This document shows positions 1 to 55,855 of a stretch of 64,000 nucleotides of DNA, one piece after another (within the stretch, counting starts at the first letter, position 1; every line of letters starts with the position of its first letter). Position numbers and translations under genes: made by a program. The notes beneath the pieces are model-generated. The model was not told where the DNA came from and searched no databases. It was given only the letters and a program-made list of their open reading frames with translations. Location of the stretch: positions 1,255,856 through 1,319,855 of the forward strand of contig NW_027266286.1 in NCBI RefSeq assembly GCF_022045235.1, read 5' to 3'. The DNA is from Haliotis cracherodii. Lineage: Eukaryota.

Positions 1-832
1 GGGTACCCGGGTAGGGTCGGGTCGGGGAGTGGAAGGGTGGGTACCCGGGTAGGGTCGGGTTGGGGAATGGAGGGGTGGGTACCCGGGTAGGGTCAGGCAG
101 TGGAGGGGTGGGTATCCGGGTAGGGTCATGTCGGGGAGTGGAGGGGTGGGTACCCGGGTAGGGTTGGGAGTGGAGGGGTGGGTATCCGGGTCGGGTCGGG
201 GAGTGGAGGGGTGGGTACCTGGGTAGGGTCGGGTCGGGAAATGGAGGGGTGGGTACCTGGGTGGGGTCTGGGAGTGGAGGGGTGGGTATCCGGGTAGGGT
301 TGGGGAGTGGAGGGGTGGGTACCCGGGTAGGGTCGGGTCGGGGAATGGAGGGGTGGGTACCCGGGTAGGGTCGGGGAGTGGAGGGATGGGTATCCGGGTA
401 GGGTCGGGTCGGAGAGTTGAGGGGTGGGTACCCGGGTAGGGTCGGGGAGTGGAAGGGTGGGTATCCGTGGAGGGGCGGGGAATGGAGGGGTGGGTACCCG
501 GGTAGGGTCGGGTCGGGGAATGGAGGGGTGGGTACCCGGGTAGGGTCGGGGAGTGGAGGGGTGGGTACCCGGGTAGGGTAGGGTCGGGGAATGGAGGGGT
601 GGGTACCCGGGTAGGGTTGGGTCGGGGAGTGGAGGGGTGGGTACCCGGGTAGGGTCGGGTCAGGGAATGGAGGGGTGGGTACCCGGGTAGGGTCGGGGAG
701 TGGAGGGGTGGGTACCCGGGCAGGGTCGGGGATTGGAGGAGTGGGTACCCGGGTAGGGTCGGGTAGGGGAGTGGAGGGGTGGGTATCCGGGTAGGGTCGG
801 GGAGTGGAGGGGTGGGTACCCGGGTAGTAAAT
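1..832. repeat. G-rich minisatellite, about 50-60-bp unit (gggtacccgggtagggtcgggtcggggagtggaggggtg), about 16 units, running from the window edge.
   Basis: Direct visual periodicity. Confidence 0.9.
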
Positions 833-844
833 CTGGACTCTTAC

Positions 845-1020
845 CAGCCTTAGTAGAGTTTGAGTTTGATTTTATGCCACTTTTAGCAATATTCCAGGAA
901 TATCACGGCGGGGGACACCAGAAATTGGTTCCACACATTGTACCCGTGTCGGGAATCGAACCAGGGTTTTTCAGCGTGATGAGCTCATGCTTTAACCACT
1001 AGACTACCCGACCGCCGCAC
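845..1020 (-). mobile_element. SINE family A copy. tRNA-derived head, conserved core ..CCGCCGTGATATTGCTGGAATATTGCTAAAAG.., (ACTC)n-type tail.
   Basis: Member of a 9-copy family in the window. Sense strand inferred from the A/B-box-like head (TAGTGGTTAA .. GGTTCGATTCC). Confidence 0.75.
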
Positions 1021-3624
1021 CTTGGTCGTGAACGGAACCCTTGCATCCAAAGTTGATAGGTAACCTCGCAGAACCATGGTAGAAAACAGTTTCCTTGACA
1101 CACAGTCAGCCTTAGGCTAAACCAACAATAGTCTTGGTAAGGCACCGCCCGCATCATCATAAAGTCTGCCACAAGATTCGTTTCTATTTCCATTTCCAAC
1201 AAAAAAATAATTAAAAAATTAGCATTCTAACACTGAAAAACAAGCCGATACAATATTGCACACTGTTACTTCCCTTTACATGCGTATCTCGTGTTATGGT
1301 CAAGGAGTTTGTATCCTTGTCTATGTAGGGAGGCCCTTTCCCAGGTTGATGGTACACAACTGTTTATTTGGTTTCATGCTAGTTAGAACAAGCAAAAAAA
1401 ACACACAAAAAACACCCACCCATCCGCCTGCCCGCACTATATTTTCAAAAGTCATTGATCGAGAACCAAGTGTTTTATTATTGTAAGCCTTAAATGTCAT
1501 TGTTTCACAAAAGTTCCTGGTTCCAGACAGCATTTGCTTGGCATCATCTGAGTGATATGAAAAGATAGGTTGAGTGTTGTTTAGTCACCTCAGCTTGGGA
1601 CTGCTCCTTGGTTAAATGCCTCACATGTTGCAATGCTAATGTTTTGTCCCATTTGGGGAACAAAACAAACAAAAGGAAAAGGAAACAAACTAATATTGTA
1701 AATATGATCTTCAACCTTTCATTCATCAAAGTACAATCATTTAACTCTGACATACATGAAGAAACAAACTAGCAGTGGACCACTATACAACATAATATAC
1801 ATATGTGTATACCATACAATATCAATATTTATTACCCACGTGGTGAAGATACAGGTGGTAAGATACTAAATCCGTATGTCACACGTGTGTCGTACAAGGT
1901 TGACCTTGTTTTATTCGTTTTGATTGGATAACCGTGACCTCTGTCACACCGGGACTACTTTTTTCATTCATAAAAAATTGCGAGACATCATTCATTTTGC
2001 GATTACAAGGCAGAACTGAAGAAATTCATGAGAACGAGAGATATTTACAAACACTTTATTAAACCAAACAAGATAGTCACACGCATCAAATTGGTTTGCA
2101 TTCTATATAAGTTATGCATAGAGCTCCTACAGACATATAATCCAGCTAGATCTATAAATCGATTTACAATGTACGACTGCCGATCGAGCACGTCCCTTGA
2201 GCGTGACGCACCCGACCATTTTCGCAACTTTCAATTTGATTTAACGTAAAAGGATAAGCGTGGTGAAATGAAGTCTGTTTAAACTATCTGGACAGATATC
2301 TAGACTTACTTGGGATGATCCGGTTGTGCCATCGGTGTCCCTTTTGAAGCGTATTTTATGGCGCTGTTTCGGGAGGTGTTCATGAATGAACGAACACGAC
2401 AGCACGACCAGATCACTTAAAGTTCACAGTTCCAATACAAATCATTCTAAAACCACTTGGAAGTGCGCTTGACTTCTGATTTTGTGGTCCCAAACATCCC
2501 AAATGTGAACAGTAACATTCACTATCTCTAGCGTAAAACGCTGTGAGGGGATCGCGGTTGTCTTTTCTTATTGCGGTGGCGACCTTGCCCTTCAATCGTT
2601 CGAAGCTGTCACTGACATGCAAGCAGATTTGAGTTTGTTGATTTTCACGTCTTCAGTATAGGGTGGTACAGTTAACATGAATGTCTTTGGCGAACAGTCT
2701 GATTTCCCTCTTCCAAAATTGGACGGGCATGATATAAATTCAGCTGATAGATCAAGGAAACCGAACCATTTTGATTGCACAGACGGGACCCCGGCAGTGT
2801 GATGCGTGTGACTGTTGGTCCGACATTCAAAGCGCGGCGCTAATGTGACATTTCAATTTTTCTTATCGGTGTCCTGCGTACTAACAACATGGCGCTTGAA
2901 TTACCATAAGTTGAAGACTTTCTTCCAAAAGGATCTTGAGCGTCGGTGCTGGTTTGTTTGCAAACAGAACAGCAGGCGCATGTTGTTAATGCGTATGCAT
3001 AAACATGTCAACAATGCCCATATTTGGTCTTATATCAATATTCATGCGCAACCAGATTTTGCAACCGGTTTCAGTTTGGTCTGTCAATGAACGAAAGTTG
3101 TTATGTATTTACACTTAAATATATATTTAACGTGGGTAATAAATAAAATACTACACTCATTCTCGTTAGATACCATTTTTACGAAACTTGTGAACTTTCT
3201 ATGGTATCTGACCGATCGAATAGTATCGAACGAGAATGAGTGTAGTATTCTCTATGTCTCAATCACATCACATCATATCTTAAAACAGAAATGTCAAGAC
3301 TCACTCACTCACTCACTCACTCACATCGTCAATCTCATTACAATCAGATCCTTGTTCCAACTATCACTCCACAAATGTCTGAGGACTTCCTATTACGGAA
3401 GAATGACCTTTCCTCCAACAAATCAGAGAGTGACTCACCAGATCAGGAAAGTGAAAGTCGGAATGTGTTTTCAAATCATGCATCCTCAAAAATGTTAACA
3501 TGGCGTGTTCTGAACCACAGTTGCTGGCTGTACGACTGATTTTGTCAATTTCATCGCCTAACGCTCACCTCAATGAGATATATTTTGAAACGGAAGAGAC
3601 ATTCCATAGCCCATGAGAGTTAGT

Positions 3625-3775
3625 GAGTTTGTTTTACGCCGCTTTTAGAAATATTCCAGCAATTTCACGGCGGGGGACACCAGAAATGTGCTTCACACAC
3701 TGTACCCATGTCGGGAATCTGGGTCTCAGCGTGATGAGCGAACGCTTTAGCCACTCAGCTACCTGACTACCCCCA
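3625..3775 (-). mobile_element. SINE family A copy.
   Basis: Sequence identity to the other family A copies. Confidence 0.75.
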
Positions 3776-4993
3776 TAGGCCATGAGAAGTACTGCCATTC
3801 AATATTACCAATCTACTAGAGCTTCAAGAATTTTCCTCTATTCAGTTTTCAAATTTGGAATCAATATTTTTTCAAAGGGTTGCCTGGAATGGAAGTCACT
3901 AGTTTAAGCTCAAGAAGCTTTCTCATTGGCTAATGTCGACTTCCTGCTAACTATGTCATTGGTCGGTCAAAGTTCACGAAAGGTCGTTCTGCAGTGACCT
4001 GTAATGGGATATCCTCAGATCTATGTGTAGCGGTAGCACACTGAGATCTAGTTTTAATGAGACTGGGTGTGGTCAAGCCAGGGATCCTTATCAGCGAGAA
4101 TCTGGGACCCCTCTACACTGATCACAGACACTGACAAATAAATATAGCAGAGTAGCAACTGGTTTACTTGTGAATACATGGCTGCTGATCAAATAACATC
4201 TAACATCTCGTAACAGGGATGAATTCAGTGATTCTATATTGTGTACATAAACTAATCATTTTAATCTTATTTCAGGTTTTAGTGATCTGGCAGACGACGA
4301 CTTGTCTATATATAACTTGCAATCAGTTGTCAGTCCAGCTGCCTCTTGTTGTTATGTTTCCTGGACAGTTCTGTGTCACAGGGCTGGTTCCTTTAGGTTT
4401 GTGGTATTAAGTCTACTTGGATTGATCTATTTTTATATCAGTGTGTTTGCTGTCTTAACAATAGCAGCACACTGCCCTCCAGTTGTAGTTTTGGCCAACT
4501 GAGAGGATGCCTGGCCTGCCAGCGGTTGTAGTGTTACTGTCCAACATAACATCCCTTCTAGACCATAACACAGTGGCATCATATCTTCTCCAACACTTCC
4601 ATGTTCCCTTATTATTGTCCATCAGTATCGTCGTTCTTTCAACCGAATGTCCATTTGTTTTTTTCCCTACACAACTTATATTCAAGGCACTAACGTCATA
4701 ACTAATGACATTTCATAGATAACAAAACAGGCACAATGCTTTTATCGAATTATATTCCAAAGGAATAAAAGGGTTTCCATGACAACAACGCTGATAATGG
4801 TGTAAACGATATGCATAATAAAACCATATATGCTTGTGACCTTACAGTACTTCATCAACAACACACAAAACATGTGTAACAGAGTTACGGATGACAAAAT
4901 GAAATAATATATATTATGCAGCATATACCAAAACAAAGTACAGCAAAATTAACAAAACATCCATTTTGCTGTGTATCCCCGAACACCAATCTA

Positions 4994-5427
4994 ACACACC
5001 ATAGTCTTGGTACTATTGTTTATCTTCTCCACGGTGTTTACAAGTTCTGGGAACAGAAGATGGAACATCCTTCCCAGTGTCTTCGTCTTCTGACGTTCTC
5101 CCAGATCACCCAACATCTTCGCTGCCGCAGTCAGCCAATCATCTGCCAGTTCCAGTGATTGACAGACGAGGGGGTGTTTCTTATCCATTGCTTTGCAAAA
5201 CTGGATTCCTTGACTCAGTGATAGAAATATCTCAGACACGTCCATTCTCTGAGATATGGTTGCCAACTCGATTTTACTGGAAAGAATCTTGCCCAATTCC
5301 CTTTCGCCATCTTTGAGCAGACGGTCATCTGTCAGGGGGAATAACTCTGGGCAGAGAACCTCCAAGATGACAAGAATAGTTATCACTGTAGCAACAAGAT
5401 CTTGGATGTCTCCTGTGACACTTGTGC
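4994..5427 (-). CDS. PARP4: PARP4-like terminal coding exon (..TSVTGDIQDLVATVITILVILEVLCPELFPLTDDRLLKDGERELGKILSSKIELATISQRMDVSEIFLSLSQGIQFCKAMDKKHPLVCQSLELADDWLTAAAKMLGDLGERQKTKTLGRMFHLLFPELVNTVEKINNSTKTMVC). Stop TAG at 4991-4993.
   Basis: Acceptor aaaccttttgcag|GC completes the Gly codon from the previous exon. Aligns with human PARP4 C-terminus ..ECLLDLIATMLVLQFIRTRL..PWAFEAIKQASEWVRR..CPRLELGNDWDSATKQLLG. Confidence 0.85.
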
Positions 5428-6049
5428 CTGCAAAAGGTTTGAGACAGAATTACAGCAACACAATTACAACACGTCTACCTAAGCTGAAATCAACCTGTGT
5501 ATGGTTTGAGACAGAATTACAGTAACACAATTACAACACGATGTCTACCTAAGCGGAAATCAACCTGCGTACGGTAGTAATGACAACTCAACATGCAAGG
5601 TAAGGAATCCTGTTTGAAATAGCTACAGATGCTGTGATTAGTCCATCAACTTCACTATTGTCTAAACATATACTCACCACCAAAAGAAACCTATAGAGAA
5701 GTATGTACGTAAAGAAGAGACGTTTCCAATGTGTACCACAGAACTATCAGCCACGGGTTACTGCTGAGTTACTTTATTCTTATCACGATATGCTACATGT
5801 GATTTCCAAACTTTACATCTAGAGTCACGGATCTATGACATCACATGTGATGCGTTCATGAGCGTCCATTCACACAACATAACAGTATGTTCGTTTATGC
5901 ATCGAACCAATCTAATATCTCTTGAATATGAGTAATTCTTCATATATCAACCCAAATGTATGGTATGCGTGTTTCTTTTGGCGGTGAGTATACACATGAG
6001 AACACACAGTGTGTGGCCTTAGTTTGTCATCATGGAAGAAAATAGAAGA

Positions 6050-6320
6050 CTGAGTGAGTGAGTTGGGCTTGACGCCGCTTTTAACAGTATTCCAGTCACA
6101 GCGTGTCAGCTTAATGTGTGTGTAAAGCCGGAAGTGATGCAGGTCTCAGACGTTTACCACTTCTGTGAAACCCATGAGCACAGGTATGGTGCTGACAAAC
6201 CTAGAAACATAATCAGGGCGAACCGGGATTCAAACCCACATTCATAGGTTTCTGGCGTGCCCAAGGGACACAACTCTGCACAGCGAATAGTGGTGCCTTA
6301 GACGACTTGGCCACCTGGGC
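6050..6320 (-). mobile_element. SINE family B copy, about 280 bp. Long tRNA-like head GGGGGCACAGGTGGCCCAGTCGTCTAA..GGGTTCGAATCCCGGTTCGCCC on the minus strand, the same core as family A, (GAGT)n tail.
   Basis: Further copies at 16745-17020, 42480-42765 and 45900-46195 (all minus). Partial copies at 21035-21165 (minus), 19338-19400 and 51985-52095 (plus). Confidence 0.75.
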
Positions 6321-6534
6321 CCCCAGATAATAGGAGAATATGATAGAATGCTGTTAATCCAAACCAATCTAATGACAGTGTGACATTGAATGTGTTCTTA
6401 ATACACCCTGAACAGTATTTCACTCATACGCCAGTCAAAGAAAAGTACCACTGTTAAAAGCCCATGACTACGTGTGTCTAGCCAAGGGTCGTAATCAGGG
6501 ATGCAAACCCATGACCAGCAGATCCTGCTCCATT

Positions 6535-6835
6535 AGTCTTTTGTTTGTTTGTTGTTTAACGCCCACTCAGCAATATTCCAGCTATATGACGGCGGTTTGT
6601 TAAATAATCAAGTCAGGGCCTGACAATCCAGTGATTGACATCATGAGCATGATTCATGCAATTGGGATCGATGACATGCATCAACCAAGTCAGCGAGCCT
6701 GACCACCCGATCCCGTTAGTCGCCTCTTCAGACAAACATACTCTCCTTTTGTGGCTAGCATGGGTTGCTGAAGACCTGTTCTACCCGGGATCTTCACGGT
6801 TCTCCGGGTCAGTGAGTTGTGACAACCTATACCAC
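6535..6835 (-). mobile_element. Repeat family C copy, about 290 bp. (TTGT)n at its plus-strand start, core ..ctcagcaatattccagctatatgacggcgg.., internal duplicated gtcgcctcttacgacaagcat.
   Basis: Further copies at 11200-11445, 21880-22140, 32285-32545, 58475-58770 and 63935-64000 (same orientation), and 16245-16500 (opposite). Strand call assumes the (AACA)n-type run is a 3' tail. Confidence 0.6.
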
Positions 6836-7292
6836 TCGGCCTCTGCCGTGTTACGAAGAAGGAGCACAGACAAGGTCCTTCTTCCACAAGTATATCACAG
6901 CAACAGACAGACTCCCATCATAGACCAATGACAGTCGTATACAGCCTTATGATGGCATCGTGGACTGAGACCAGGATATTTACAGGGAGCTTCGGTGAAC
7001 CAGTGCACAGTTGCTTCCCCTTGGGCATGCCAGGAACCGAGGACCATTGGTTCGAATCTTAGATCTCGCCTTCTTGGCTTGTCAGCACCCGTGCTCGTGG
7101 ATTTCACCCAAGTAGTAAATGTCTAAGACCTGCATCACTTTGGGCTTTCTTTCCACATCAAACTGACGCACTGTGAAATTGCAGACAATTAAATATTCTT
7201 TTGTTTCTTTTAAGAAATATTGTATTGAAAATTCAGTTACATTATTCTCAAAACAAGACAATAAGACTCATGAACTGTTTGGAAACCGTTAC

Positions 7293-7392
7293 CTAGAGAC
7301 CGAAGTCCAGCCTTCATCAACAGTTCCCTGTAGTCATGGCTACGGATGCACAAAGCTGTATCAAGGGCACTGCCGAATCGCCATGATCCATC
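7293..7392 (-). CDS. PARP4: PARP4-like penultimate exon (DGSWRFGSALDTALCIRSHDYRELLMKAGLRSL).
   Basis: Acceptor gtcttttgtcag|GAT, donor TAG|gtaacg (phase 1). Human has DGFWKLTPELGLILNLNTNGLHSFLKQKGIQSL. Confidence 0.8.
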
Positions 7393-7519
7393 CTGACAAA
7401 AGACATAATCACATAAAATGTTGCACACGGCAAGAAACGTAATGCACGAGTACACAGTAGAATATACTCTTCTCATAGCTGAATCAACTTGTACGGAATT
7501 ATTGTAATGACCAAGGGGA

Positions 7520-7705
7520 CAGAGAGTGATTGTGTGAGTGAGTGAGTATGGTTTTATGCTGTTTTTAGCAATATTCCAGCAATATCACAGCAGGGGACAC
7601 CAGAACTGGGCTTCACACATTGTACCCATGTTGGGATTCAAACCTGGGTCTTCTGCGTGACGAGCGAACACTTTAGCCACTAGGCTACCCGATCGCCCCC
7701 CAAGG
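7520..7705 (-). mobile_element. SINE family A copy with (GAGT)n at its plus-strand start.
   Basis: Sequence identity to the other family A copies. Confidence 0.75.
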
Positions 7706-7749
7706 GGACAGCTCAAGAGTTGTTGGAAAATGTCTTATTCTTTATTTGG

Positions 7750-8110
7750 AGGGGGGACGATGAAATTCTCATTTAAGTAAGATCTTAGTGTTCACCACTA
7801 CTAGGCAAAGTTCTGATGACATCCCATTACAGGTCACATCAGAATTCATGCAACCAACCAGAGTGTCATTTACAAGGCAGTGAAAGTGACAGCCGGAGTG
7901 TGTTTCCTAATCATGCAAACCTAAAAAATGTCAAGCGGTATGACAGATTCCGAATGCTAGACATCGTCTATCTCTTACTTGAATCGAAGTGACTTTCATG
8001 GGTAATAGTGCCATACAACCTCGGCCATTCATTTGACATTACTAAATTCTTTTGGTTCAGTTTGCAAATTTGGAATCAAGAACTTTGTCAAAATATTTTT
8101 CAAAGCATAG
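7750..8110. repeat. Dispersed repeat family F copy. The related copy is at about 3400-3900, there split by a family A SINE.
   Basis: Shared blocks gaaagtgacagccggagtgtgtttc, aatcatgca..aaaaatgt and ttcagtttgcaaatttggaatcaag. Confidence 0.5.
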
Positions 8111-8270
8111 TCTGGTAGTCATGTACAGAATTTTGTTTGATACTTCTAGCGGCATTCCATTTGTATTTAACTCAGGTGAAGTTATTGTAACGAATGTGTC
8201 GTTGGTATTGATCAAAGCTTAATGGAGAAATAATACCCTGGATTAACGAGGATGCTTGACGCCCACTCAC

Positions 8271-8827
8271 CTGATTCTGTAGTCGGAGGATGATCTGGAT
8301 ATTGTCTTGAGGTATGGGGGCCATGTAGTGGGATGCAGCAGTGGTCACATGATCCCCGAGTTCAAGTCCTGGTGGTGCCGCCCCTCCCATCCCATCTCTG
8401 AACCCTGTGGTGCTGCCACACATCAGACTGCTAGACGGAGATTGGAAGCTGACTGACATCTTTCCTCCATGGGAATCATGAGTGATGCTACTGAGGCCTG
8501 TTGTCTCTTGAGCCACATCCATCAGCTGGTCAGCAAGGGATACTAGGGATGTCCTGTTGATCCCTTGTGACGGGGAAAACAGCTGAGACGCCATGTGTGC
8601 GAAGGGACTAGGTCCCTGGGATATTCCAGAGACCACAAATTCTGCAGAGTGTTTGTTTACTGTGCTAGTCACTCCAACCGCCACTGGTGGCTTGCATATA
8701 GTTCTCGGGAAACCTGGACTGACAGATGGGGCTCCACCTCCTCCTCCAAACAGTAATGGCATTCCATCAAAGACGGGATGAGACGGAGCTGGAACATCGG
8801 CCATAGGTATCTCATCTGGATGGGGCA

Positions 8828-8858
<31 letters not shown>

Positions 8859-10055
8859 CTGTTGCTGTGGCATTCCAAAACCCCTACTCTCATATGTTTG
8901 TGGCATTGCATTCTTTGTTCCAAACAGGGAACTACTTTTCTCAGGAGATGGATATGCAAATATTGGATGAATAGGTAAATCCTGGAATCCTGGGGGTTTC
9001 TGCTTGAAGCTGTCCGTGTGAGATGGCACTTGCACATTACAACCAAATCCAGATCCAAAGGAAGATTTTTCAGCATGTTTAGACGCATCTACTGCTCCGA
9101 ATGACAAACAAGTGGAAGCCATTGTTGAACCACCAAATCCAGATCCAAAGGAGGATTTTTCAGCATGTTTAGACGCATCTACTGCTCCGAATGAGAAACC
9201 TGTTGCAGCCGTTGTTGAACCACCAAATCCAGATCCAAAGGAAGATTTTTCAGCATGTTTAGACGCATCTACTGCTCCGAATGACAAACAAGTGGAAGCC
9301 ATTGTTGAACCACCAAATCCAGACCCAAAGGAGGATTTTTCAGCATGTTTAGACGCATCTACTGCTCCGAATGAGAAACAAGTGGAAGCCGTTGTTGAAC
9401 CACCAAATCCAGATCCAAAGGAGGATTTTTCAGCATGTTTAGACGCATCTACTGCGCCGAATGAGAAACCTGTTGCAGCCGTTGTTGAACCACCAAATCC
9501 AGACCCAAAGGAGGATTTTTCAGCATGTTTAGACGCATCTACTGCTCCAAATGAGAAACCTGTTGCAGCCGTTGTTGAACCACCAAATCCAGATCCAAAG
9601 GAGGATTTTTCAGCATGTTTAGACGCATCTACTGCTCCGAATGAGAAATTTGCTGGCTTTCCCACTAGACTGTCTGCCTGCATACTCTGCGAAGCAGGTA
9701 CCACCATGCCAGAGCTCCCAAATCCAGATCCACGTGTCACATGACTGACGTGTTGGAGTCCCGGCAGTACCACTCCCTCCTTCCTGTCTGGGGGCATGCC
9801 TGAACCACCAACTGTACATCCAAGTGAAAAGTTGATTGGGAAATCCAGTTCTGCTCCACTTGGACTCACGCTCCAACCATCATATGGAGTTCGAAGTAGT
9901 TGCTTCTCTGTCCTTTTGTGCGTCATACCAGCTTGTGTTTCTTCTGCTTCTTGTTCGAGAATGTAAGAACTGTCAATGTCCATCCCGAAGAGATCTTCCT
10001 CTGGCTGTTCTCCCAAGAAGCCAAATGACTTCACGTTTTCTCCCACACCTGTCAT
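8271..10055 (-). CDS. PARP4: Giant low-complexity exon of PARP4-like. Acidic FG motif GEQPEEDLFGMDIDS at the N-terminal end. About 7 repeats of a 40-aa unit (ANFSFGAVDASKHAEKSSFGSGFGGSTTAATGFS), encoded by a 120-bp DNA tandem repeat at about 9050-9660. Q13 run from a CTG-type microsatellite at 8830-8870. Gly/Pro-rich segment. Ends ..HYMAPIPQDNIQIILRLQNQ.
   Basis: Open frame of 595 codons on the minus strand, ending at a strong donor CAG|gtgagt (8265-8270). The tail IPQDNIQIILRLQNQ plus the next exon DGSWRF aligns with human PARP4 VPWTELLSLQTE-DGFWKL. The 5' boundary is unresolved: candidate acceptor acag|GT at 10049/10048, otherwise ATG at 10053-10055. The ORF-track ORF continues artefactually to 8172. 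Confidence 0.65.
9050..9660. repeat. 120-bp coding tandem repeat, about 5 units, inside the giant PARP4-like exon. Encodes the 40-aa FG repeat.
   Basis: Near-identical 120-mers. The plus-strand ORF 9112-9744 is its antisense artefact. Confidence 0.85.
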
Positions 10056-10057
10056 AA

Positions 10058-10500
10058 CATAGCCAGCAAGGTATTATTGGTCGGTGACGATTGTACATAG
10101 CCAGCAAGGTATTATTGGTCGGTGACGATTGTACATAGCCAGCAAGGTATTATTGGTCGGTGATGATTGTACACAGCCAGGAAGGTATTATTGGTCGGTG
10201 ATGATTGTACATAGCCAGCAAGGTATTATTGGTCGGTGATGATTGTACATAGCCAGCAAGGTATTATTGGTCGGTGACGATTGTACATAGCCAGCAAGGT
10301 ATTATTGGTCGGTGATGATTGTACATAGCCAGCAAGGTATTATTGGTCGGAGACGATTGTACATAGCCAGCAAGGTATTATTGGTCGGTGACGATTGTAC
10401 ATAGCCAGCAAGGTATTATTGGTCGGTGACGATTGTACATAGCCAGCAAGGTATTATTGGTTGGTGATGATTATACATAGCCAGCAAGGTATTATTGGTC
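10058..10500. repeat. 39-bp minisatellite, about 11 units (catagccagcaaggtattattggtcggtgacgattgta), immediately upstream of the giant exon.
   Basis: Direct periodicity. Confidence 0.9.
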
Positions 10501-10739
10501 GGTAACAATTGTCCAAACTATTTGTGAAGTGGAATGTCCCGAAGTCACGAGGGCAATCGCGATGACAAATTAAATTTTAAAGTTGAAAGGGATACAGTGA
10601 TTATCTAGATACATCTACTTGTGTCAACAGTTTAAATAAAATGAAAAAAAATAGGATTATCAACACATTTAACCATATATAACTATATATTGTATGCACT
10701 TTACCAGTTTATTTACACGTCTGGCAAATGTACTGTACA

Positions 10740-11689: not shown

Positions 11690-12225
11690 AGCAACGGCCA
11701 TAGGTCTATGTTAAAGTAAGGGTCTTTAGATCATCTTAGCACTCAACGGTCGTAAGTCTATGTTAAAGTAAGGGACTTCAGATCATCTTAGCACTCAACA
11801 ATCGTAAGTCTATGTTAAAGTAAGGGTCTTTAGATCATCTTAGCACTCAACAGTCGTAAGTCTATGTTAAAGTAAGGGTCTTATGATCATCTTAGCACTC
11901 AACGGTTGTAAGGCTTTGTTAAAGTAAGGGTCTTAAGATCATCTTAGCACTCAACAGTCATAAGTCTATTTTAAAGTAAGGGATTTCAGATCATCTTAGC
12001 ACTCAATGGTCATAAGTCTATTTTAAAGTAAGGGTCTTAAGATCATCTTAGCACTCAACAGTCATAAGTCTATTTTAAAGTAAGGGTCTTAAGATCATCT
12101 TAGCACTCAACGGTCATAAGTCTATGTTAAAGTAAGGGTCTTAAGATCATCTTAGCACTCAACAGTCATAAGTCTATTTTAAAGTTAGGGACTTAAGATC
12201 ATCTTAGCGCTTAGAACGCTTTGTC
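11690..12225. repeat. 60-bp minisatellite, about 9 units (agtaagggtcttaagatcatcttagcactcaacagtcataagtctattttaa).
   Basis: Direct periodicity. Confidence 0.9.
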
Positions 12226-12297: not shown

Positions 12298-12802
12298 CTG
12301 CCGAGTATCGACTTCTGTCTCTGTCTCTACTTTTTGATCTTGATCTTCTGTCCCTTGCATCTTCAACACTTCCAGTTGGAGGAGGCATTGTCCTGGAGGA
12401 GTCCGGAGGTGGGGGTGGAGGAATGGCAGCACTCATGTTGGCGCTCCTGGCAGCTGCCAAGGGAACTGAAGAACCACCCCTGATCAATCCACCAATTTTG
12501 GCCCCCAATAACAATGATCTAGTTTTGGTCAAAGCGTCATGTTCTATGGGAGGTGGAGGTGGTGGAATATGACTTCTGGAAGGGGGAGGCGATGGAGGGG
12601 GGGGGTACATGACTTCTAGCAGGTGTAGGGGGAGGGGGAGGCACAGACACCCCAGAAGGGGGTGCTTGTGCTGCTCCAGGGGGTGGCGGGGCCCACCTGC
12701 TATGTCTGGAAGTGGGGGGTGGTGGGGGTGGGGGCACAGCACTTCCAGTAGTTTTGGGAAGCTTTTTTGACAGCTCATTTTTTGCAAGGAATAGTTTTTC
12801 AC
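12298..12802 (-). CDS. Coding-like ORF, frame B, overlapping frame A by 266 nt. Pro-rich, then an RS/RD-rich tail (..EDARDRRSRSKSRDRDRSRYSAG). Ends at a strong donor CAG|gtaagat (12292-12297).
   Basis: Strong GTAAGA donor immediately after an open frame. Frame A and frame B overlap across G/C homopolymer runs, so either a small intron or a homopolymer indel connects them. Confidence 0.35.
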
Positions 12803-13465
12803 TCAATTCAAGCTGGGGGACACTACCCATCCGAGGATCAGGGCGTGTGTCAAATCTCCCACAAAGAAGCTGGGTTGAATATTGAGGCTGGTCAATAACC
12901 TTCTTCAGCTGTGTGCCACCACCTATTTGATTAAGCAGGGAAGCCCGACTAAAACTTCTCGTAGCTTGCATTTTTGAGCATTGGAACAGCTCCCCTACCG
13001 CAGGGAGTGGTGGTGGGGGTGGGGGTGGTGGCATTCTTCCTAATGCCGCTTTTCTGGGCATGGCCTCCTGTCTGACAGACTGCAGTGGCGGCGCAGCTCT
13101 GAAGAATGAATAGATGAATGAACATCCACCCCTACCTCTACCTCTATCCCCACCCCTACCTCTATCCCCAACCCCACCCCTACCTCTACCCCTACTCCCA
13201 CCCCCATCCCCACCTCCACCGTCATCAAACAATCCAAACCCCATATCTTCATCGTCTGACTCCTCTGACTCATCCAACTCGTCATCAAGGCAGCTGGCTG
13301 CCACGCTATCACCCAGGTTGGCTTGTACTGATTCTATGGCTGACGCAATGTCTAAGTCCCCAGTCTTAACCAACATGTCACGCATTCTACGTGGTTCCAA
13401 TTCTTCCAAATTCTCCTCAAAGGGTTCTTCTGGCAACAATTTGCCTGATAGCATATTGGTGGCAT
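12537..13465 (-). CDS. Coding-like exon or ORF, frame A. Encodes an acidic segment (..ASCLDDELDESEESDDEDMGFGLFDD), an RGG/Gly-Arg repeat, poly-Pro, a WH2-like motif (RSFSRASLLNQIGGGTQLKKV), and further poly-Pro runs.
   Basis: Excellent acceptor ttttttgttttag|AT at 13466-13467. Open frame to a stop at 12537. Same strand and inside the PARP4-like span. Could be a lineage-specific disordered PARP4 exon or a nested Pro-rich WH2-type gene. The composition partly follows C/G-rich low-complexity DNA, so the ORF may be over-extended. Confidence 0.4.
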
Positions 13466-36167: not shown

Positions 36168-36174
36168 CTAGAAC

Positions 36175-39959: not shown

Positions 39960-40200
39960 CATACAATACAGAATCTCTTAATCCCTGTCAATCATTTAGG
40001 CCCATGACCTTCACTGATGACCTTCACCTCTAACTTACATCCCTGTCCATCAGATAAGCCCCATGACCTTCACTGATGACCTTCACCTCTAACTTATATC
40101 CCTGTCCATCAGATAGCCCATGACCTTCACTGATGACCTTCACCTCTAACTTACCGGCGTCTCCTCATCCCTGTCCATCAAATAGGCCCCATGACCTTCA
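39960..40200. repeat. 60-bp tandem repeat, about 4 units, overlapping the exon 14 donor region.
   Basis: Direct periodicity. Confidence 0.8.
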
Positions 40201-41159: not shown

Positions 41160-42425
41160 AGGAATAGGGAATATAGGGAACACGGTGAATATAGGGAACA
41201 CAGTGAATATAGGGAACATGGTGAATATAGGGAACACAGTGAATATAGGGAACACAGTGAATATAGGGAACACAGTGAATATAGGGAACATGGTGAATAT
41301 AGGGAACATGGTGAATATAGGGAACACAGTGAATATAGGGAACACAGTGAATATAGGGAACACAGTGAATATAGGGAACACGGTGAATATAGGGAACATG
41401 GTGAATATAGGGAACACAGTGAATATAGGGAACACAGTGAATATAGGGAACACAGTGAATATAGGGAACATGGTGAATATAGGGAACACAGTGAATATAG
41501 GGAACACGGTGAATATAGGGAACACAGTGAATATAGGGAACACGGTGAATATAGGGAACATGGTGAATATAGGGAACACAGTGAATATAGGGAACACAGT
41601 GAATATAGGGAACACGGTGAATATAGGGAACACGGTGAATATAGGGAACATGGTGAATATAGGGAACATGGTGAATATAGGGAACACGGTGAATATAGGG
41701 AACACAGTGAATATAGGGAACATGGTGAATATAGGGAACATGGTGAATATAGGGAACACAGTGAATATAGGGAACACACTTAATATAGGGAACACAGTGA
41801 ATATAGGGAACATGGTGAATATAGGGAACATGGTGAATATAGGGAACACAGTTAATATAGGGAACACAGTGAATATAGGTAACACAGTGAATATAGGGAA
41901 CACGGTGAATATAGGGAACACGGTGAATATAGGGAACACACAGTGAATATAGGGAACACAGTGAATATAGAGAACACGGTGAATATAGGGAACACAGTGA
42001 ATATAGGGAACACAGTGAATATAGGGAACACAGTGAATATAGGGAACACAGTGAATATAGGGAACACAGTTAATATAGGGAACACAGTGAATATAGGGAA
42101 AAAAGTGAATATAGGGAACACAGTGAATATAGGGAACATGGTGAATATAGGGAACACAGTTAATATAGGGAACACAGTGAATATAGGGAACACAGTGAAT
42201 ATAGGGAACACAGTGAATATAGGGAACACAGTGAATATAGGGAACATGGTGAATATAGGGAACATGGTGAATATAGGGAACACAGTGAATATAGGGAACA
42301 TGGTGAATATAGGGAACATGGTGAATATAGGGAACACAGTGAATATAGGGAACATGGTGAATATAGGGAACACACAGTGAATATAGGGAACACAGTGAAT
42401 ATAGGGAACACAGTGAATATAGAAC
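41160..42425. repeat. 21-bp minisatellite, about 60 units (gtgaatatagggaacacagtg), intronic between exons 12 and 13.
   Basis: Direct periodicity. Five large ORF-track ORFs (40995-42518 and others) are artefacts of it. Confidence 0.95.
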
Positions 42426-43051: not shown

Positions 43052-43800
43052 CTGGCAGTAAAACAGTCAAACATCAGTCGACACGGTCAAACATCAGCCT
43101 GACACAGTCAAACATCAGTCAACACAGTCAAACATAGTCAAAAATCAGTTGACACAGCCAAACATACTCAAAAATCTGTTGACACTGTCAAACATCAGCC
43201 TGGTTCAGTCAAACATCAGCCTGGAAGTCAAACATAGTCAAACATCAGCCTGGAAGCCAGCCAGTCGACATTATCAAACATCAGTCTGTCTCAGTCAAAC
43301 ATCAGTCTGGCTCAGTCAAACATGGTCAAACATCAGCCTGGCTCAGTCAAACATAGTCAAACATCTGCAGGGCTAAGTCAAACATCAGCCTGGAAGTCAA
43401 ACGCAGTCAAACATCAGTCAACACAGTCAAACATCAGTCTAACTCAGTCAAATGCAGTTAAACATCAGTCTGGCTTAGTTAAACGCAGTCAAACATCAGT
43501 CTGGCTCAGTCAAACGCAGTCAAACATCAGTCTGACTCATTCAAACATCTACATGGCTCAGTTAAACATCAGCCTGGCTCAGTAAAATGCAGTCAAACAT
43601 CAATCTGGCTTAGTCAAACATAATCAAACATCTGCAAAGTTCAGTCAAACATCAGCCTGGAAGTCAAAAGCAGTCAAACGTCAGTCGACACAGTCAAACA
43701 TCAGCCTGGCTCATTCACACGTAGTCAAACATCATCCAGATACACTCATCAACAGTCAAACAGTCAAAGAGCAGCCTGACACACTCATCAACAGTCAAAC
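43040..43800. repeat. Degenerate about 21-bp repeat (tcaaacatcagcctggctcag), about 35 units.
   Basis: Direct periodicity. Confidence 0.8.
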
Positions 43801-43833
43801 AGCAGCCTGACACAAAGACTGTCAACTTCCTAC

Positions 43834-44017: not shown

Positions 44018-44039
44018 CTGCAACAACAGGGCCAGGTGA

Positions 44040-44585
44040 GCTAACTATATAACATCAACATTTCACCAGGTGAACTATTTAAATAACATCAACATTTCAC
44101 AAGGTGAACTAACTATATAACATCAACATTTCACCAGGTGAGCTAACTATATAACATTAATATTTCACTAAGTAACTGAAATAACATCATCTTGGACATT
44201 TTTCACCAGGTGAACTTACTATAAACATTATCTTGGGCACGTTTCACCAGGTGAGCTAACCATAAAAGGTTATCTTGGGCACATTCAACCAGGTGAGCTA
44301 GCCATAAAAGGTTATCTTGGTCACATTTCACCAGGTTAACTAACCATAAAAGGTAATCTTGGGCACGTTTCACCAGGTGAGCTAACCATAAAAGTAATCT
44401 TGGTCACATTCAACCAGGTGAGCTAACCAAAAAAGGTAATCTTAGACACATTCAACCAGGTGAGCTAACCATAAAAGGTTATCTTAGGCACATTCAACCA
44501 GGTGAGCTAACCATAAAAGGTTATCTTAGGCACATTCAACCAGGTGAGCTAACCATAAAAGGTAATCTTAGGCACACTTCAGGTG
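44040..44585. repeat. About 60-bp minisatellite, about 9 units (..caccaggtgagctaaccataaaaggttatcttgggcaca..).
   Basis: Direct periodicity. Confidence 0.85.
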
Positions 44586-45875: not shown

Positions 45876-45899
45876 CTGGAAACATCAATGAATAATCAC

Positions 45900-46639: not shown

Positions 46640-46930
46640 CTCCATATGTACTCCATACTCAATACTCCAGCTATATGACAGGCCTGTAAATAATCAGGTC
46701 TGGACCAGAAAAACCAGTGACTGATATTATGAGCAACAATCCAAGTTGTCGGATCATAATGACATGCAAGCAAACCAGTCAACCAGTTTTACACATTGAT
46801 GCATGTCATCCCATTGCATAGATCAATGCTCATGTCAGTCACCAGATTGTCTGTTTCAGATTTGATTACTTATTGATTGATGTCAAACAGCTGGAATATT
46901 GCTGAGTGTGGACATTAAATAACAAACAAA
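46640..46930. mobile_element. Inverted pair of two partial family C copies (46650-46800 in one orientation, 46790-46930 in the other), forming a potential long hairpin in the PARP4-like intron.
   Basis: The two halves match opposite-orientation segments of family C. Confidence 0.5.
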
Positions 46931-46984
46931 CCATGCAGCAATGTGCAACATGCACCAACTCACACACCAGGTACAGCGCGGTAG

Positions 46985-49273: not shown

Positions 49274-49284
49274 CTGAACAAGAT

Positions 49285-50340
49285 TGAACAACATGAGACA
49301 TCATGGGACAACATAGGACAAGATTGGACAACATAGGACAAGATTGGACAACATAGGACAAGATTGGACAACATAGGACAAGATGGGACAACACAGAACA
49401 AGATTGGACAACATAGGACAAGATTGGACAACATAGGACAAGATTGGACAACATAGGACAACATAGGATGGTGACCGGGAGGGAGTGTGTGAGTGAGGGG
49501 ATTAAGTTTCATGCTGATCATGTCTGTGTTGTGAGTGGATTGTCAAATTAATGTGGGAAGAAACTACTAATGTGAGTCAAAGAAACTACTGATGTGAGTC
49601 AAGGAAACTACTGAAGTGAGTCAAGGAAACTACTGAAGTGAGTCAAGGAAACTACTAATGTGAGTCAAGGAAACTACTGATGTGAGTCAAGGAAACTACT
49701 GATGTGAGTCAAGGAAACTACTAATGTGAGTCAAGGAAACTACTGAAGTGAGTCAAGGAAACTACTGAAGTGAGTCAAGGAAACTACTGATGTGAGTCAA
49801 GGAAACTACTGATGTGAGTCAAGGAAACTACTGAAGTGAGTCAAGGAAACTACTGAAGTGAGTCAAGGAAACTACTGATGTGAGTCAAGGAAACTACTGA
49901 TGTGAGTCAAGGAAACTACTGATGTGAGTCAAGGAAACTACTGAAGTGAGTCAAGGAAACTACTGATGTGAGTCAAGGAAACTACTGATGTGAGTCAAGG
50001 AAACTACTGATGTGAGTCAACATCAGGCAATGGTAGGGGCTTTAATATCAGGCAATGGTAGGGGCTTCAATATCACTTATCAGGTAATAGTAGGGGCTTC
50101 AACATCAGGCAATGGTAGAGGCTTCAATATCAGGCAATGGTAGGGGCTTCAATATCAGGCAATGGTAGGGGCTTCAATATCAGGCATTGGTAGGGGCTTC
50201 AATATCAGGCAATGGTAGGGGCTTCAATATCAGGCAATGGTAGGGGCTTCAATATCAGGCAATGGTAGGGGCTTCAATATCACTTATCGGGCAATGGTAG
50301 GGGCTTCAATATCAGGCAATGGTTGGGACTTCAATATCAG
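49285..50340. repeat. Three consecutive 30-bp minisatellites: gattggacaacataggacaa about 6 units at 49285-49460, tgagtcaaggaaactactgatg about 15 units at 49560-50020, and atcaggcaatggtaggggcttcaat about 10 units at 50020-50340.
   Basis: Direct periodicity. Confidence 0.9.
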
Positions 50341-50486
50341 GCAATGGTAGAGTTGGCACAAATTTCATACACAGAGTTGGGCTTATCTGACAACTGAGAG
50401 TTATTCACGGTCTCATTTGATCACTGGTACTTGACTAACAACAGACCCACATCCCAGAAGAAGAACATAATCATCATCTTGCTTAC

Positions 50487-51954: not shown

Positions 51955-52494
51955 GTTGCCCTAGCTGAAGCAGACGTGATTACAGCCATCAGTACACATC
52001 TTCCTCATCCTACAGAGGGCACGAGTGGCCCAGTCAGTGGTGCTGCAATTTGCTGTGCAGAGTTGCGTCCCTTAGGCACGCAAGACACCCATTACCATAT
52101 TCACTGTAATAAGCGTCCTGCGCTTTTATTAAAACCGTAAGAAATGTGTTAAATTTGTTGTCTGTCATTAAGCCGTAAAGAACAAACATGCTTCAAATGA
52201 AACTGAAACGTTTGTGATAATAACTACAAGGCTATTGTATACCCTTAGTCAGTCATATCGAGTTCCAAGTTTAGCAAGAGGGACTTATAATGATCACTTA
52301 CAGATTGGTGTAAAAGTTGGACAGGGGGCACTTAATGGGGCGGGGTGCTTAATAGAGTGAATATGGTATCATGGGTTCGAATCCCAGAATCACTCGTATT
52401 GTGTTTCTAGGCTGGTCAGCAGCATATCCGTGCTTGTGGGTTTCACTACAGTGGTAAATATCTAATATCACTTTTAGCTCTCCTCCCACATGAA

Positions 52495-55400
52495 GCTGAC
52501 AAAGGTCAGGTAGTATGTAGAGTCTATTGTATGTAGAATCTGTAGTATGTAGAGTCTGTAGTATGTAGTATGTAGACTCTATAGTATGTAGTATGTAGAC
52601 TCTGTAGTATGTAGAATCTGTAGTATGTAGAGTCTGTAGTATGTAGTATGTAGAGTCTGTAGTATGTAGTATGTAGAGTTTGTTGTATGTAGAGTCTGTT
52701 GTATGTAGAGTCTGTAGTATGTAGACTCTGTAGTATGTAGAATCTGTAGTATGTAGAGTCTGTAGTATGTAGTATGTAGAGTCTGTAGTATGTAGAGTCT
52801 GTAGTATGTAGTATGTAGACTCTGTAGTATGTAGAATCTGTAGTATGTAGAGTGTAGAGTCTGTTGTATGTAGAGTCTGTAGTATGTAGAGTTTGTAATA
52901 TGTAGAGTCTGTAGTATGTAGTATGTAGAGTCTGTAGTATGTAGAGTCTGTAGTATGTAGAGTCTGTAGTATGTAGTATGTAGAGTCTGTAGTATGTAGA
53001 CTGTAGTATGTAGTATGTAGAGTCTGTAGTATGTAGTATGTAGAGTCTGTAGTATGTAGACTCTGTAGTATGTAGTATGTAGAGTCTGTAGTATGTAGTA
53101 TGTAGACTGTAGTATGTAGACTCTGTAGTATGTAGTATGTAGAGTCTGTAGTATGTAGTATGTACACTGTAGTATGTAGTATGTAGTATGTAGTCTGTAG
53201 TATGTAGTATGTAGAGTCTGTAGTATGTACTATGTAGACTGTAGTATGTACTATGTAGAGTCTGTAGTATGTAGTATGTAGAGTCTGTAGTATGTACTAT
53301 GTAGACTGTAGTATGTACTATGTAGACTCTGTAGTATGTAGTATGTAGAGTCTGTACTATGTAGAGTCTGTAGTATGTAGTATGTAGAGTCTGTACTATG
53401 TAGAGTCTGTAGTATGTAGTATGTAGAGTCTGTAGTATGTAGAGTTTGTAGTATGTACTATGTAGACTGTAGTATGTACTATGTAGAGTCTGTAGTATGT
53501 AGTATGTAGAGTCTGTAGTATGTACTATGTAGACTGTAGTATGTACTATGTAGACTCTGTAGTATGTAGTATGTAGAGTCTGTACTATGTAGAGTCTGTA
53601 GTATGTAGTATGTAGAGTCTGTACTATGTAGAGTCTGTAGTATGTAGTATGTAGAGTCTGTAGTATGTAGAGTCTGTAGTATGTAGTATGTAGAGTCTGT
53701 AGTATGCACTATGTAGACTGTAGTATGTACTATGTAGAGTCTGTAGTATGTAGAGTCTGTAGTATGTACTATGTAGACTGTAGTATGTACTATGTAGAGT
53801 CTGTAGTATGTAGTATGTAGAGTCTGTACTATGTAGAGTCTGTAGTATGTAGTATGTAGAGTCTGTACTATGTAGAGTCTGTAGTATGTAGTATGTAGAG
53901 TCTGTAGTATGTAGTATGTAGACTCTGTAGTATGTAGTATGTAGAGTCTGTAGTATGTAGTATGTAGACTGTAGTATGTAGAATCTGTAGTATGTAGTAT
54001 GTAGAGTCTGTTGTATGTAGAGTCTGTAGTATGTAGTATGTAGAGTCTGTAGTATGTAGTATGTAGACTGTAGTATGTAGAGTCTGTAGTATGTACTATG
54101 TAGAGTCTGTTGTATGTAGAGTCTGTAGTATGTAGTATGTAGAGTCTGTAGTATGTACTATGTAGACTGTAGTATGTACTATGTAGAGTCTGTAGTATGT
54201 AATATGTTGAGTCTGTAGTATGTACTATGTAGACTGTAGTATGTAGTATGTAGACTCTGTAGTATGTAGTATGTAGAGTCTGTAGTATGTAGAGTGTAGA
54301 GTCTGTTGTATGTAGAGTCTGTAGTATGTAGTATGTAGAGTCTGTAGTATGTACCATGTAGAGTCTGTAGTATGTAGAATCTGTAGTATGTACTATGTAG
54401 AGTCTGTAGTATGTACTATGTAGAGTCTGTAGTATGTAGAGTCTGTAGTATGTACTATGTAGACTCTGTAGTATGTACTATGTAGAGTCTGTAGTATGTA
54501 GTATGTAGAGTCTGTAGTATGTACTATGTAGAGTCTGTAGTATGTAGCATGTAGAGTCTGTAGTATGTAGAGTCTGTAGTATGTACTATGTAGAGTCTGT
54601 AGTATGTAGTATGTAGACTCTGTAGTATGTAGTATGTAGAATCTGTAGTATGTAGAATCTGTAGTATGTACTATGTAGAGTCTGTAGTATGTACTATGTA
54701 GAGTCTGTAGTATGTAGTATGTAGACTCTGTAGTATGTAGTATGTAGAGTCTGTAGTATGTACTATGTAGACTCTGTAGTATGTAGAATCTGTTGTATGT
54801 AGAGTCTGTACTATGTAGAGTCTGTAGTATGTACTATGTAAAGTCTGTAATATGTAGTATGTAGAGTCTGTAGTATGTACTATGTAGACTCTGTAGTATG
54901 TAGAATCTGTAGTATGTACTATGTAGAGTCTGTAGTATGTACTATGTAGAGTCTGTAGTATGTAGTATGTAGACTCTGTAGTATGTAGTATGTAGAGTCT
55001 GTAGTATGTACTATGTAGACTCTGTAGTATGTAGAATCTGTTGTATGTAGAGTCTGTACTATGTAGAGTCTGTAGTATGTACTATGTAGAGTCTGTAATA
55101 TGTAGTATGTAGAGTCTGTAGTATGTACTATGTAGACTCTGTAGTATGTAGAATCTGTAGTATGAAGAGTCTGTAGTATGTAGAGTCTGTAGTATGTACT
55201 ATGTAGAGTCTGTAGTATGTAGTATGTAGAGTCTGTAGTATGTACTATGTAGAGTCTGTAATATGTAGTATGTAAAGTCTGTAGTATGTACTATGTAGAA
55301 TCTGTAGTATGAAGAGTCTGTAGTATGAAGAGTCTGTAGTATGTACTATGTAGAGTCTGTAGTATGTAGTATGTAAAGTCTGTAGTATGTACTATGTAGA

Positions 55401-55855
55401 GTCTGTAGTATGTACTATGTAGAGTCTGTAGTATGTACTATGTAGAGTCTGTAGTATGTACTATGTAGAGTCTGTAGTATGTAGTATGTAGACTGTAGTA
55501 TGTAGAGTCTGTAGTATGTAGTATGTAGACTGTAGTATGTAGACTGTAGTATGTAGTATGTAGACTCTGTAGTATGTAGTATGTAGACTCTGTAGTATGT
55601 AGAGTCTGTAGTATGTAGACTGTAGTATGTAGACTCTGTAGTATGTAGAGTCTGTAGTATGTAGTATGTAGACTGTAGTATGTAGTATGTAGAGTCTGTA
55701 GTATGTAGTATGTAGACTGTAGTATGTAGACTGTAGAATGTAGTATGTAGAGTCTGTAGTATGTAGTATGTAGAGTCTGTAGTATGTAGTATGTAGAGTC
55801 TGTAGTATGTACTATGTAGAGTCTGTAGTATGTACTATGTACTATAGTCCTATTG
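52495..55855. repeat. About 3.3-kb satellite array of variable 21-30-bp units built from gtagtatgtagagtctgtagtatgtactat, located 0.5 kb upstream of the PARP4-like start codon.
   Basis: Direct periodicity. ORFs at 52349-54357 are artefacts. Confidence 0.95.

Follow-up and report, generated by a model that had tools for sequence, protein, structure and literature searches.

Minisatellite arrays at splice junctions and in introns of a PARP4 orthologue from Haliotis cracherodii

We analyzed a 64,000-nucleotide stretch of Haliotis cracherodii DNA (NCBI RefSeq assembly GCF_022045235.1, contig NW_027266286.1, positions 1,255,856 to 1,319,855 of the forward strand), here called the window, in which a multi-exon gene for PARP4 (vault PARP) lies among many tandem repeat arrays. 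An earlier note on this DNA had claimed that the introns of this one gene carry a very high minisatellite load, with several arrays abutting splice sites, and had predicted effects of copy number on splicing. The gene occupies 46,958 bp of the minus strand, from an ATG at 51954 to a stop codon at 4993-4991, and a satellite of 3,332 bp (52510-55841; periods of 16, 23, and 39 bp; C/A-rich on the gene sense strand) lies 556 bp upstream of the ATG, in agreement with the 3.3 kb and roughly 0.5 kb given in that note.

The minus-strand stop-to-stop open reading frames (ORFs) hold pieces of PARP4, and protein searches returned PARP4-named proteins with PARP, VIT, and VWA domains. The exon model was built by tblastn with the retrieved proteins and with human PARP4, together with a simple splice-site score and frame bookkeeping; the human query was an approximate sequence and served purely as a guide. 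This gave 26 exons from the ATG to position 23650, with all 25 introns bounded by GT and AG, and a spliced coding sequence of 3,723 nt (1,241 amino acids) that has no internal stop and is 38% identical to the approximate human PARP4 sequence from end to end over 1,266 alignment columns. In the spliced product, Pfam identified an N-terminal BRCT domain (PF00533, residues 2 to 79, E = 8e-11), a weak PARP_reg match (residues 294 to 375, E = 1.6e-05), the PARP catalytic domain (PF00644, residues 410 to 575, E = 2.4e-31), a VIT domain (PF08487, residues 637 to 748, E = 1.1e-36), and a VWA domain (PF13768 VWA_3, residues 884 to 1036, E = 5.4e-21). This order, with VIT and then VWA placed C-terminal to the catalytic domain, matches PARP4, and the PARP4-named database matches have the same architecture; the best named invertebrate matches were from Crassostrea gigas and Solemya velum, at 71 to 84% identity in the VIT exon, with none above about 84%. 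The earlier assignment of the gene as PARP4-like was thus borne out, and the domain order and the open 26-exon frame indicate an intact mollusc-type PARP4 orthologue. The last three exons (10048-8271, 7392-7293, and 5427-4991) are open and phase-consistent, with a donor upstream at 12298, while the exons between 23650 and 13467 are provisional, since tblastx of the C-terminal 20 kb against the fetched loci gave no match.

Tandem Repeats Finder (TRF) returned 69 rows for the window, which merged into 38 arrays. Arrays with a period of at least 10 bp cover 15,702 of the 64,000 bases (24.5%), compared to at most 97 bp in block-shuffled controls (n = 5 windows); the arrays are real and far beyond chance. 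The gene span (4991-51954) contains 22 arrays with units of 18 to 119 bp that sum to 10,899 bp, or 23%, and 21 of them are intronic, with head-to-tail units, when the TRF output is mapped on the exon model. In the introns of exons 1 to 26, arrays make up 7,092 of 24,582 bases (28.9%), so the very high intronic load is confirmed, and most array-bearing introns are left with 42 to 500 nt of unique, non-SINE (short interspersed element) sequence. The earlier estimate of at least 25 independent arrays totaling about 13 kb, with units of 21 to 120 bp, was close to these values (about 11.7 kb if an array at 1-827 is included), and most units are indeed unrelated to one another, although two neighboring pairs (the arrays starting at 44032 and 44189 and those at 19587 and 20040) are related. 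The placement of all of these arrays inside introns did not hold, as arrays at 9042-9648, 13126-13220, and 8830-8868 are coding and the one at 1-827 lies past the stop codon.

We also found that the 17 kb of the window outside the gene contains 4,385 bp of arrays (25.7%, mostly a single satellite), compared to 23% inside. Since the flanks are no poorer in arrays than the gene, a load specific to PARP4, which the earlier note had implied, is not shown; the flank load argues mildly against gene specificity, and the enrichment looks regional or genome-wide. That note had also proposed a comparison with an orthologous locus, and in the 33-kb PARP4 locus of Solemya velum arrays account for 4.6% of the bases, with no array close to an exon mapped by tblastn. 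The comparison covers this locus alone, the other contigs retrieved, three from ENA, being intron-less PARP and VIT-VWA ORFs of non-molluscs, which were left out. Because the Solemya locus is array-poor, the load is not a feature that was inherited with PARP4 but is specific to the lineage of the source species, where it arose. In the Solemya locus, an annotated PARP4 vault-interaction product at 1-9477 (minus strand) lies on the opposite strand to the adjoining PARP, VIT, and VWA fragments at 10001-31426 (plus strand), which may reflect a second PARP4 copy, an inversion, or an assembly problem.

The arrays are concentrated at splice junctions. We measured distances for the 14 arrays of introns 1 to 25 after removing all arrays from the coordinate system and found that 8 of the 14 lie within 21 nt of a junction, whereas 0.86 would be expected under random placement in array-free introns. 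None of 200,000 random trials reached eight or more (P < 5e-6), and the excess persisted at all thresholds tried between 5 and 50 nt. When each array was placed at random within its own intron, 3.5 were expected (P = 0.0025), and this null, run at 5, 16, and 21 nt, gave an excess at each. The control was the set of eight SINE copies in the introns of exons 1 to 26, which lie 28 to 343 nt from junctions, with none within 21 nt. Three arrays in the provisional C-terminal part of the gene, starting at 19587, 10057, and 5436, end 0 to 8 nt before acceptors, so that 11 of the 21 intronic arrays are at junctions (8 in introns 1 to 25 and 3 in the C-terminal part). These are more cases than the earlier note had listed, and the concentration is real for this gene.

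Five of the eight near-junction arrays of exons 1 to 26 are on the acceptor side. A 20-bp array of nine units (49278-49461), in which 70% of the sense-strand bases are pyrimidines, stops 4 nt short of exon 4 (49273-49136), for which it supplies the polypyrimidine tract, and a 34-bp array of four units (44032-44168), each with a branch-site-like CTCAC, ends 14 nt before exon 11 (44017-43834). A degenerate array with periods of 10, 21, and 31 bp (43063-43802) fills 740 of the 782 nt of intron 11 and stops 11 nt short of exon 12 (43051-42895), an 18-bp array of 69 units (41169-42422; 72% pyrimidine) ends 16 nt before exon 13 (41152-41019), and a 119-bp array of four units with a 237-bp higher-order period (36172-36646) ends 4 nt before exon 18, the VWA exon (36167-35981), where the earlier note had placed a 118-bp array. 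On the donor side, two 70-bp units (40857-40997) begin 21 nt past the exon 13 donor, and two minus-strand arrays start at a donor itself (distance, 0 nt). The first has a 59-bp unit (39977-40204), with a putative founding copy at the end of exon 14 (the VIT exon, 40379-40155) and then three intronic copies (39977-40154); this is the array that had been described as a 60-bp array holding the exon 17 donor in its first unit, and the junction is real, but the exon is exon 14. The exon numbering agrees with that of the earlier note at exon 22, and exon 17 (37524-37387) carries its own donor-spanning array, with 11 units of 44 bp (36911-37402) that take in the exon end and the donor. The array reported about 75 bp from exon 22 was recovered as 17 units of 28 bp (29867-30351), 72 nt past the donor of that exon (30594-30424).

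The coincidence of array edges with intact canonical splice sites also bears on whether the arrays might have been produced by faulty assembly, or whether the gene might be a degenerating copy within heterochromatin rich in satellites. Very high repeat density and a 3.3-kb satellite beside the gene are what such an explanation would expect, but units differ from one another by 2 to 20%, with structured variants, and the coding sequence is open across 26 exons and the last three exons, so we consider this explanation extremely improbable, and the least probable of those weighed here. A subtelomeric location was likewise rejected, as the window has only two isolated TTAGGG dimers and no telomeric array.

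The sequences of the units point to where they came from. The 59-bp unit consists of the last ~35 nt of exon 14, the GTAAGT donor, and ~24 nt of intron, and it aligns with exon positions 40166-40204 (39 bp, 92%, E = 2e-8); the exon 14 peptide 'SEGHGAYLMDRD' is found again by tblastn in the intron at 40086-40039. The exon copy has an extra 12 nt (GAGGAGACGCCG, coding EETP; 40155-40166) between 'GAT' and GTAAGT that is absent from all intronic copies, so either the intronic copies go back to a version with a deletion or the end of the exon was lengthened once the duplication had occurred. The 44-bp unit joins ~17 nt from the end of exon 17 to CAG|GTAGGA and then ~27 nt of intron. On the acceptor side, CCAG|GCTGATG, made up of the acceptor and the initial 7 nt of exon 12, is present in the intron 11 unit, and the degenerate last unit of the 24-bp array at 19587-20064 merges into the acceptor of the exon at ~19558. 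A fifth unit has a different source. The 39-bp array (25 units, 38122-39087, minus strand) is derived from the 5' tRNA-like (A-box) head of a SINE that we call 'E', the body of which, from the B box onward, lies directly downstream of it (37840-38121, minus strand), and alignment with a second SINE 'E' copy at ~23204-23524 places the unit in the A-box part of the head. By sequence comparison, four arrays are tandem copies of an exon-intron junction and one is an amplified SINE head.

We searched the consensus units against the rest of the window and found that no unit matches another array except in the two adjacent pairs named above. Several arrays have higher-order periods (119/237, 59/142/201, and 23/46/68 bp), and the 44-bp array has alternating unit variants; these nested periods and alternating variants fit growth by unequal exchange of multi-unit blocks. 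Since several units could be traced to their own surroundings, the arrays appear to have been born in place, and the sequences indicate that nearly all of them arose in situ from local DNA.

These observations weigh on the proposal that the arrays are the central repeats of inserted mobile elements, either nonautonomous Helentrons of the Cg_HINE type or elements like MITEs (miniature inverted-repeat transposable elements). Oyster genomes are full of dispersed, Helentron-derived satellite-like arrays (PMC7492417), and several arrays here adjoin SINE copies. In Crassostrea gigas, the Cg_HINE arrays form sequence families with defined flanking modules (PMC7492417). The arrays of the window resemble them as short satellite-like arrays scattered in gene-rich mollusc DNA but differ from one another, lack common flanks, and appear to be copied from their own surroundings; across the 64 kb, we found neither a recurring array family nor conserved left and right flanking modules. 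No unit is common to two nonadjacent arrays, and in a self-BLAST of the window, the dispersed repeats were SINE families alone, with no sequence that consistently brackets arrays. SINE adjacency was itself rejected as a cause of the arrays, because the approximately five arrays within 80 bp of a SINE are, by a rough estimate, about what chance would give, and the 39-bp array alone is SINE-derived. As four units contain sequence of the exon beside them and another is an internal part of the neighboring SINE, we rejected mobile-element carriage within the window and regard it as very improbable.

The tRNA-derived SINEs of the window belong to at least four families, with about 30 copies in 64 kb and lengths of about 155, 270 to 280, and 320 bp (examples are at 855-1016, 6048-6324, 6539-6802, 37840-38121, and 23204-23524). 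Families A and C have a common core, AGCAATATTCCAGCnATATnACGGCGG, and tails of (ACTC)n or (CAAA)n. The core had no match in a search of the literature, and tRNA and Rfam scans of the window found nothing. When metagenomes were scanned with the core, two contigs of 1 to 1.6 kb came back, of which the 1-kb public contig PEAW01039012.1 carries a family C copy at 919-1041 with 84 to 95% identity to the window copies. In intron 7, two inverted SINE-C fragments (46660-46931) could form a hairpin in the pre-mRNA, and a 147-bp self-complementary stretch (28132-28276) lies just upstream of exon 23. In the bivalve Scapharca broughtonii, tRNA-derived SINEs accumulate in genes and form intronic arrays of 2 to 15 whole or truncated SINEs (PMC11481361). 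The 39-bp array is SINE-derived as well, but here merely the tRNA-like head piece was amplified, 25 times and in one array.

Some of the arrays that abut acceptors are unusual in their splice-signal content. Sense-strand AG is nearly absent from three of the eight acceptor-abutting arrays: the 38-bp array has none in 456 nt (19.7 expected), the 18-bp array has one in 1,254 nt (22.4 expected), and the 20-bp array has none in 184 nt (4.1 expected). None of the 13 other arrays is AG-free, and the three AG-poor arrays are also pyrimidine-rich or have branch-site-like motifs. Such arrays would act like a tandem "branch site plus polypyrimidine tract" without a competing acceptor, so that the first downstream AG is the true one no matter which unit serves. 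A long AG-free stretch between a distant branch site and the acceptor, which lets the first downstream AG be chosen, is known as an AG exclusion zone; the three arrays have this property, completely or nearly so, over 184 to 1,254 nt, with the difference that the AG-free stretch is built from a tandem repeat.

Other junction arrays multiply the splice sites themselves. The 44-bp array has seven further exact copies of the exon 17 donor 9-mer (CAGGTAGGA), the 59-bp array has one further intact GTAAGT, the intron 11 array has CCAG|GCTGATG nine times including the true junction (eight extra copies), and each unit of the 119-bp array repeats a polypyrimidine tract followed by an AG. Read-through from the true donors meets a TAG after 2 codons at exon 14 and after 16 codons at exon 17, so use of a downstream donor would give premature stops rather than new isoforms. 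The splice-site copies are best seen as decoys, and those that are read through would hit premature stops.

A known counterpart is the 25-bp variable number tandem repeat (VNTR) in intron 18 of human ABCA7, which starts at the GT of the exon 18 donor (De Roeck et al. 2018, PMC5954066). A cryptic donor in it is used, array length correlates with skipping of exon 19, use of the donor in the next unit retains one unit with a frameshift that leads to a premature stop, and the array can enlarge the intron severalfold (PMC5954066). The 44- and 59-bp arrays have the same anatomy, with an authentic splice site within the repeated unit, but ABCA7 has one array in one intron, compared to 21 intronic arrays here, 11 of them at junctions; the junction-spanning units here also include 17 to 35 nt of exon, and the effect on splicing was measured in ABCA7 and is predicted here. 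With the donor copies and the ABCA7 precedent, the copy-number-dependent splicing proposed in the earlier note is plausible.

It has also been found that intronic minisatellites of Caenorhabditis elegans are associated with genes that make multiple splicing decisions (PMC4039745). Along with ABCA7 and the intact donors, acceptor-like sites, and polypyrimidine tracts in arrays beside real splice sites, this would fit the idea that the arrays are functional splicing regulators, the copy number or length of which tunes exon inclusion or PARP4 output. However, the arrays are not conserved in the Solemya orthologue, their units are mutually unrelated and have no common motif, the decoy products that are read through carry premature stops, and arrays are equally abundant outside the gene. 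We therefore consider a regulatory role improbable.

The explanation that we favor, and hold with moderate confidence, is that an intact PARP4 gene sits in DNA with an unusually high rate of minisatellite birth and growth, in introns and flanks alike, and that the arrays are passengers, those at junctions being the survivors of a selective filter. Each array would have begun in place, when the sequence that happened to lie there underwent a short tandem duplication, and then expanded by slippage or unequal exchange, as neither a mobile element nor a regulator, swelling introns from about 40 to 500 nt of unique DNA to 0.3 to 1.8 kb. The concentration at junctions would then reflect survival, with the condition that the exon-proximal splice signal must remain in use. 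An acceptor-adjacent array may persist if it is AG-free, since scanning from any repeated branch site would reach the true acceptor, and an array that holds the sole donor, branch site, or polypyrimidine tract could not vanish completely. Mis-splicing at decoys would be removed by nonsense-mediated decay rather than yielding isoforms.

Several points weigh against this explanation. Unit identity in TRF is ~89% for junction-anchored arrays and ~90% for the others, with no sign that the anchored ones are older. The difference in AG content (three of eight versus none of 13) has a Fisher p of ~0.04, for a comparison picked after seeing the data, and the use of the first donor or last acceptor was deduced from reading frame and homology. 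In addition, the C-terminal third of the gene model is provisional, and the evidence for a regional or genome-wide property comes from 17 kb of flank, largely a single satellite.

For the junction enrichment, we favor the survivorship filter and treat mutational bias as a live rival. In the latter, a process tied to exon-intron junctions would seed minisatellites there, the candidates being slippage that starts from low-complexity polypyrimidine tracts and transcription- or splicing-linked damage and repair. It would account for the strong enrichment, for the predominance of the acceptor side (with three more acceptor-side arrays in the C-terminal part), for the 63 to 72% pyrimidine content of the 18-, 20-, and 119-bp units on the sense strand, compared to ~50% in unique intron DNA, and for the four units that include the junction itself. 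On the other hand, this is a single gene, and the donor-spanning arrays are purine-rich, so polypyrimidine seeding cannot explain them; other arrays lie mid-intron, in intergenic DNA, or inside a coding exon, one came from a SINE head, and the 3 junction-spanning seeds among 14 arrays, compared to about 1 expected from unit length by estimate, are not significant alone. We judge this process to be unlikely as the cause, although less so than the other rivals. We are slightly more doubtful of a broader version, in which minisatellites are born preferentially at junctions throughout the lineage, are a main driver of intron growth, and form genome-wide batteries of decoys that modulate splicing fidelity by copy number.

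Earlier work described how tandem duplication across a splice or proto-splice site can change introns (Lehmann et al. 2010, PMC2891723; Hellsten et al. 2011, PMC3265369). There, as here, the locally duplicated segment takes in a splice signal along with exon sequence, and one of the copies is treated as intron. Those were single duplications that created or shifted an intron, whereas here the introns pre-exist and only on the intron side was the duplication amplified, to 4 to 11 or more copies; across the junctions that carry such arrays, the exon sequences align with the approximate human PARP4 sequence.

The remaining arrays are spread over the gene and its flanks. Intron 3 has, in addition to the 20-bp array, 21 units of 22 bp (49560-50020) and 13 units of 25 bp (50017-50350, 136 nt past the exon 3 donor), and the three arrays together make up 80% of the intron. 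Intron 10 contains nine 42-bp units (44189-44581), related to the neighboring 34-bp unit. About 38 units of 22 or 23 bp (34464-35335) lie in the middle of intron 18, and 11 units of 56 bp (22431-23051) lie ~600 nt past the exon 26 donor. In the C-terminal part of the gene, a compound array (19587-20873), composed of 20 units of 24 bp (19587-20064) and 14 related units of 59 bp (20040-20873), precedes an acidic exon that starts at ~19558 or 19549, and six 26-bp units (19150-19312) lie downstream of that exon. Ten 52-bp units (11692-12208) begin 89 nt past the donor at 12298, the 12 units of the AG-free 38-bp array (10057-10512) stop 8 nt short of the large exon beginning at 10048, and two 67-bp units (5436-5575) end 8 nt before the last exon (5427-4991).

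Coding arrays are found in the same part of the gene. The spliced translation shows that the minus-strand 90-bp array (6.7 units, 9042-9648) is a coding minisatellite inside exon 10048-8271, with a 30-amino-acid FG/SG-rich (FG-like) repeat, and the short arrays at 13126-13220 and 8830-8868 encode an RGG box and a 13-residue polyglutamine tract, respectively. The repeat is covered by an open frame of 633 amino acids. The 1.8-kb exon at 8271-10048 (minus strand) belongs to the disordered C-terminal part of the gene product, and a protein search with it found no homologue. Isolated C-terminal ORFs gave weak Pfam matches to Nucleoporin_FG and WH2 and nothing else, and the spliced C terminus gave no Pfam match at E ≤ 0.001. 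With the approximate human query, residues 1652 to 1721 align weakly by tblastn to 5275-5057 (27% identity, E = 2e-4) and residues 1581 to 1616, also weakly, to 7398-7291 (E = 0.9); the last two exons thereby show a weak resemblance to the human region that interacts with the major vault protein, which Pfam did not confirm. An open frame at 12540-13481 (minus strand), in phase with the downstream PARP4 exons, comprises an acidic stretch ending in 'ESEESDDEDMGFGLFDD', the RGG box, and long polyproline runs; 'ESEESDDEDMGFGLFDD' resembles the conserved C-terminal peptide of the ribosomal stalk P proteins, and a WH2-like 'LLNQIGGGTQLKKV' in the same frame has a Pfam WH2 score (E = 0.008) below the cutoff.

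In the flanks, a G-rich array with periods of 33, 38, and 71 bp (1-827), cut by the window edge, lies ~4.2 kb downstream of the PARP4 stop codon. Upstream of the gene are a reverse-transcriptase fragment (57295-57804, minus strand; RVT_1, E = 3e-9), which is a retroelement remnant, and a 21-bp array of 10.6 units (62920-63145), 220 bp before a plus-strand open frame (63363-63842). This frame of 160 amino acids is Ser/Lys-rich, has an internal ATG, and is probably the first coding exon of a divergently oriented neighboring gene.

Taken as a whole, the locus is a dense and well-structured instance of a known phenomenon, intronic VNTRs of which some span splice sites, at one locus and in one haplotype, and not a new kind of element. 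It stands out from routine cases by its enrichment at junctions, by units derived from junctions, and by arrays free of AG before acceptors, all from this one locus. Nothing suggests that PARP4 function is changed. For gene prediction, the arrays are a hazard, because they contain ORFs and strong decoy splice sites while one of them is truly coding. For splicing, the gene is a natural experiment in splice-site choice, with seven identical tandem 5' splice sites beyond the true one, eight additional copies of an acceptor, and AG-free repeat tracts of up to 1.25 kb before an acceptor. If the pattern is genome-wide, the in-place birth of minisatellites, and not transposon insertion, would be a major determinant of intron size.

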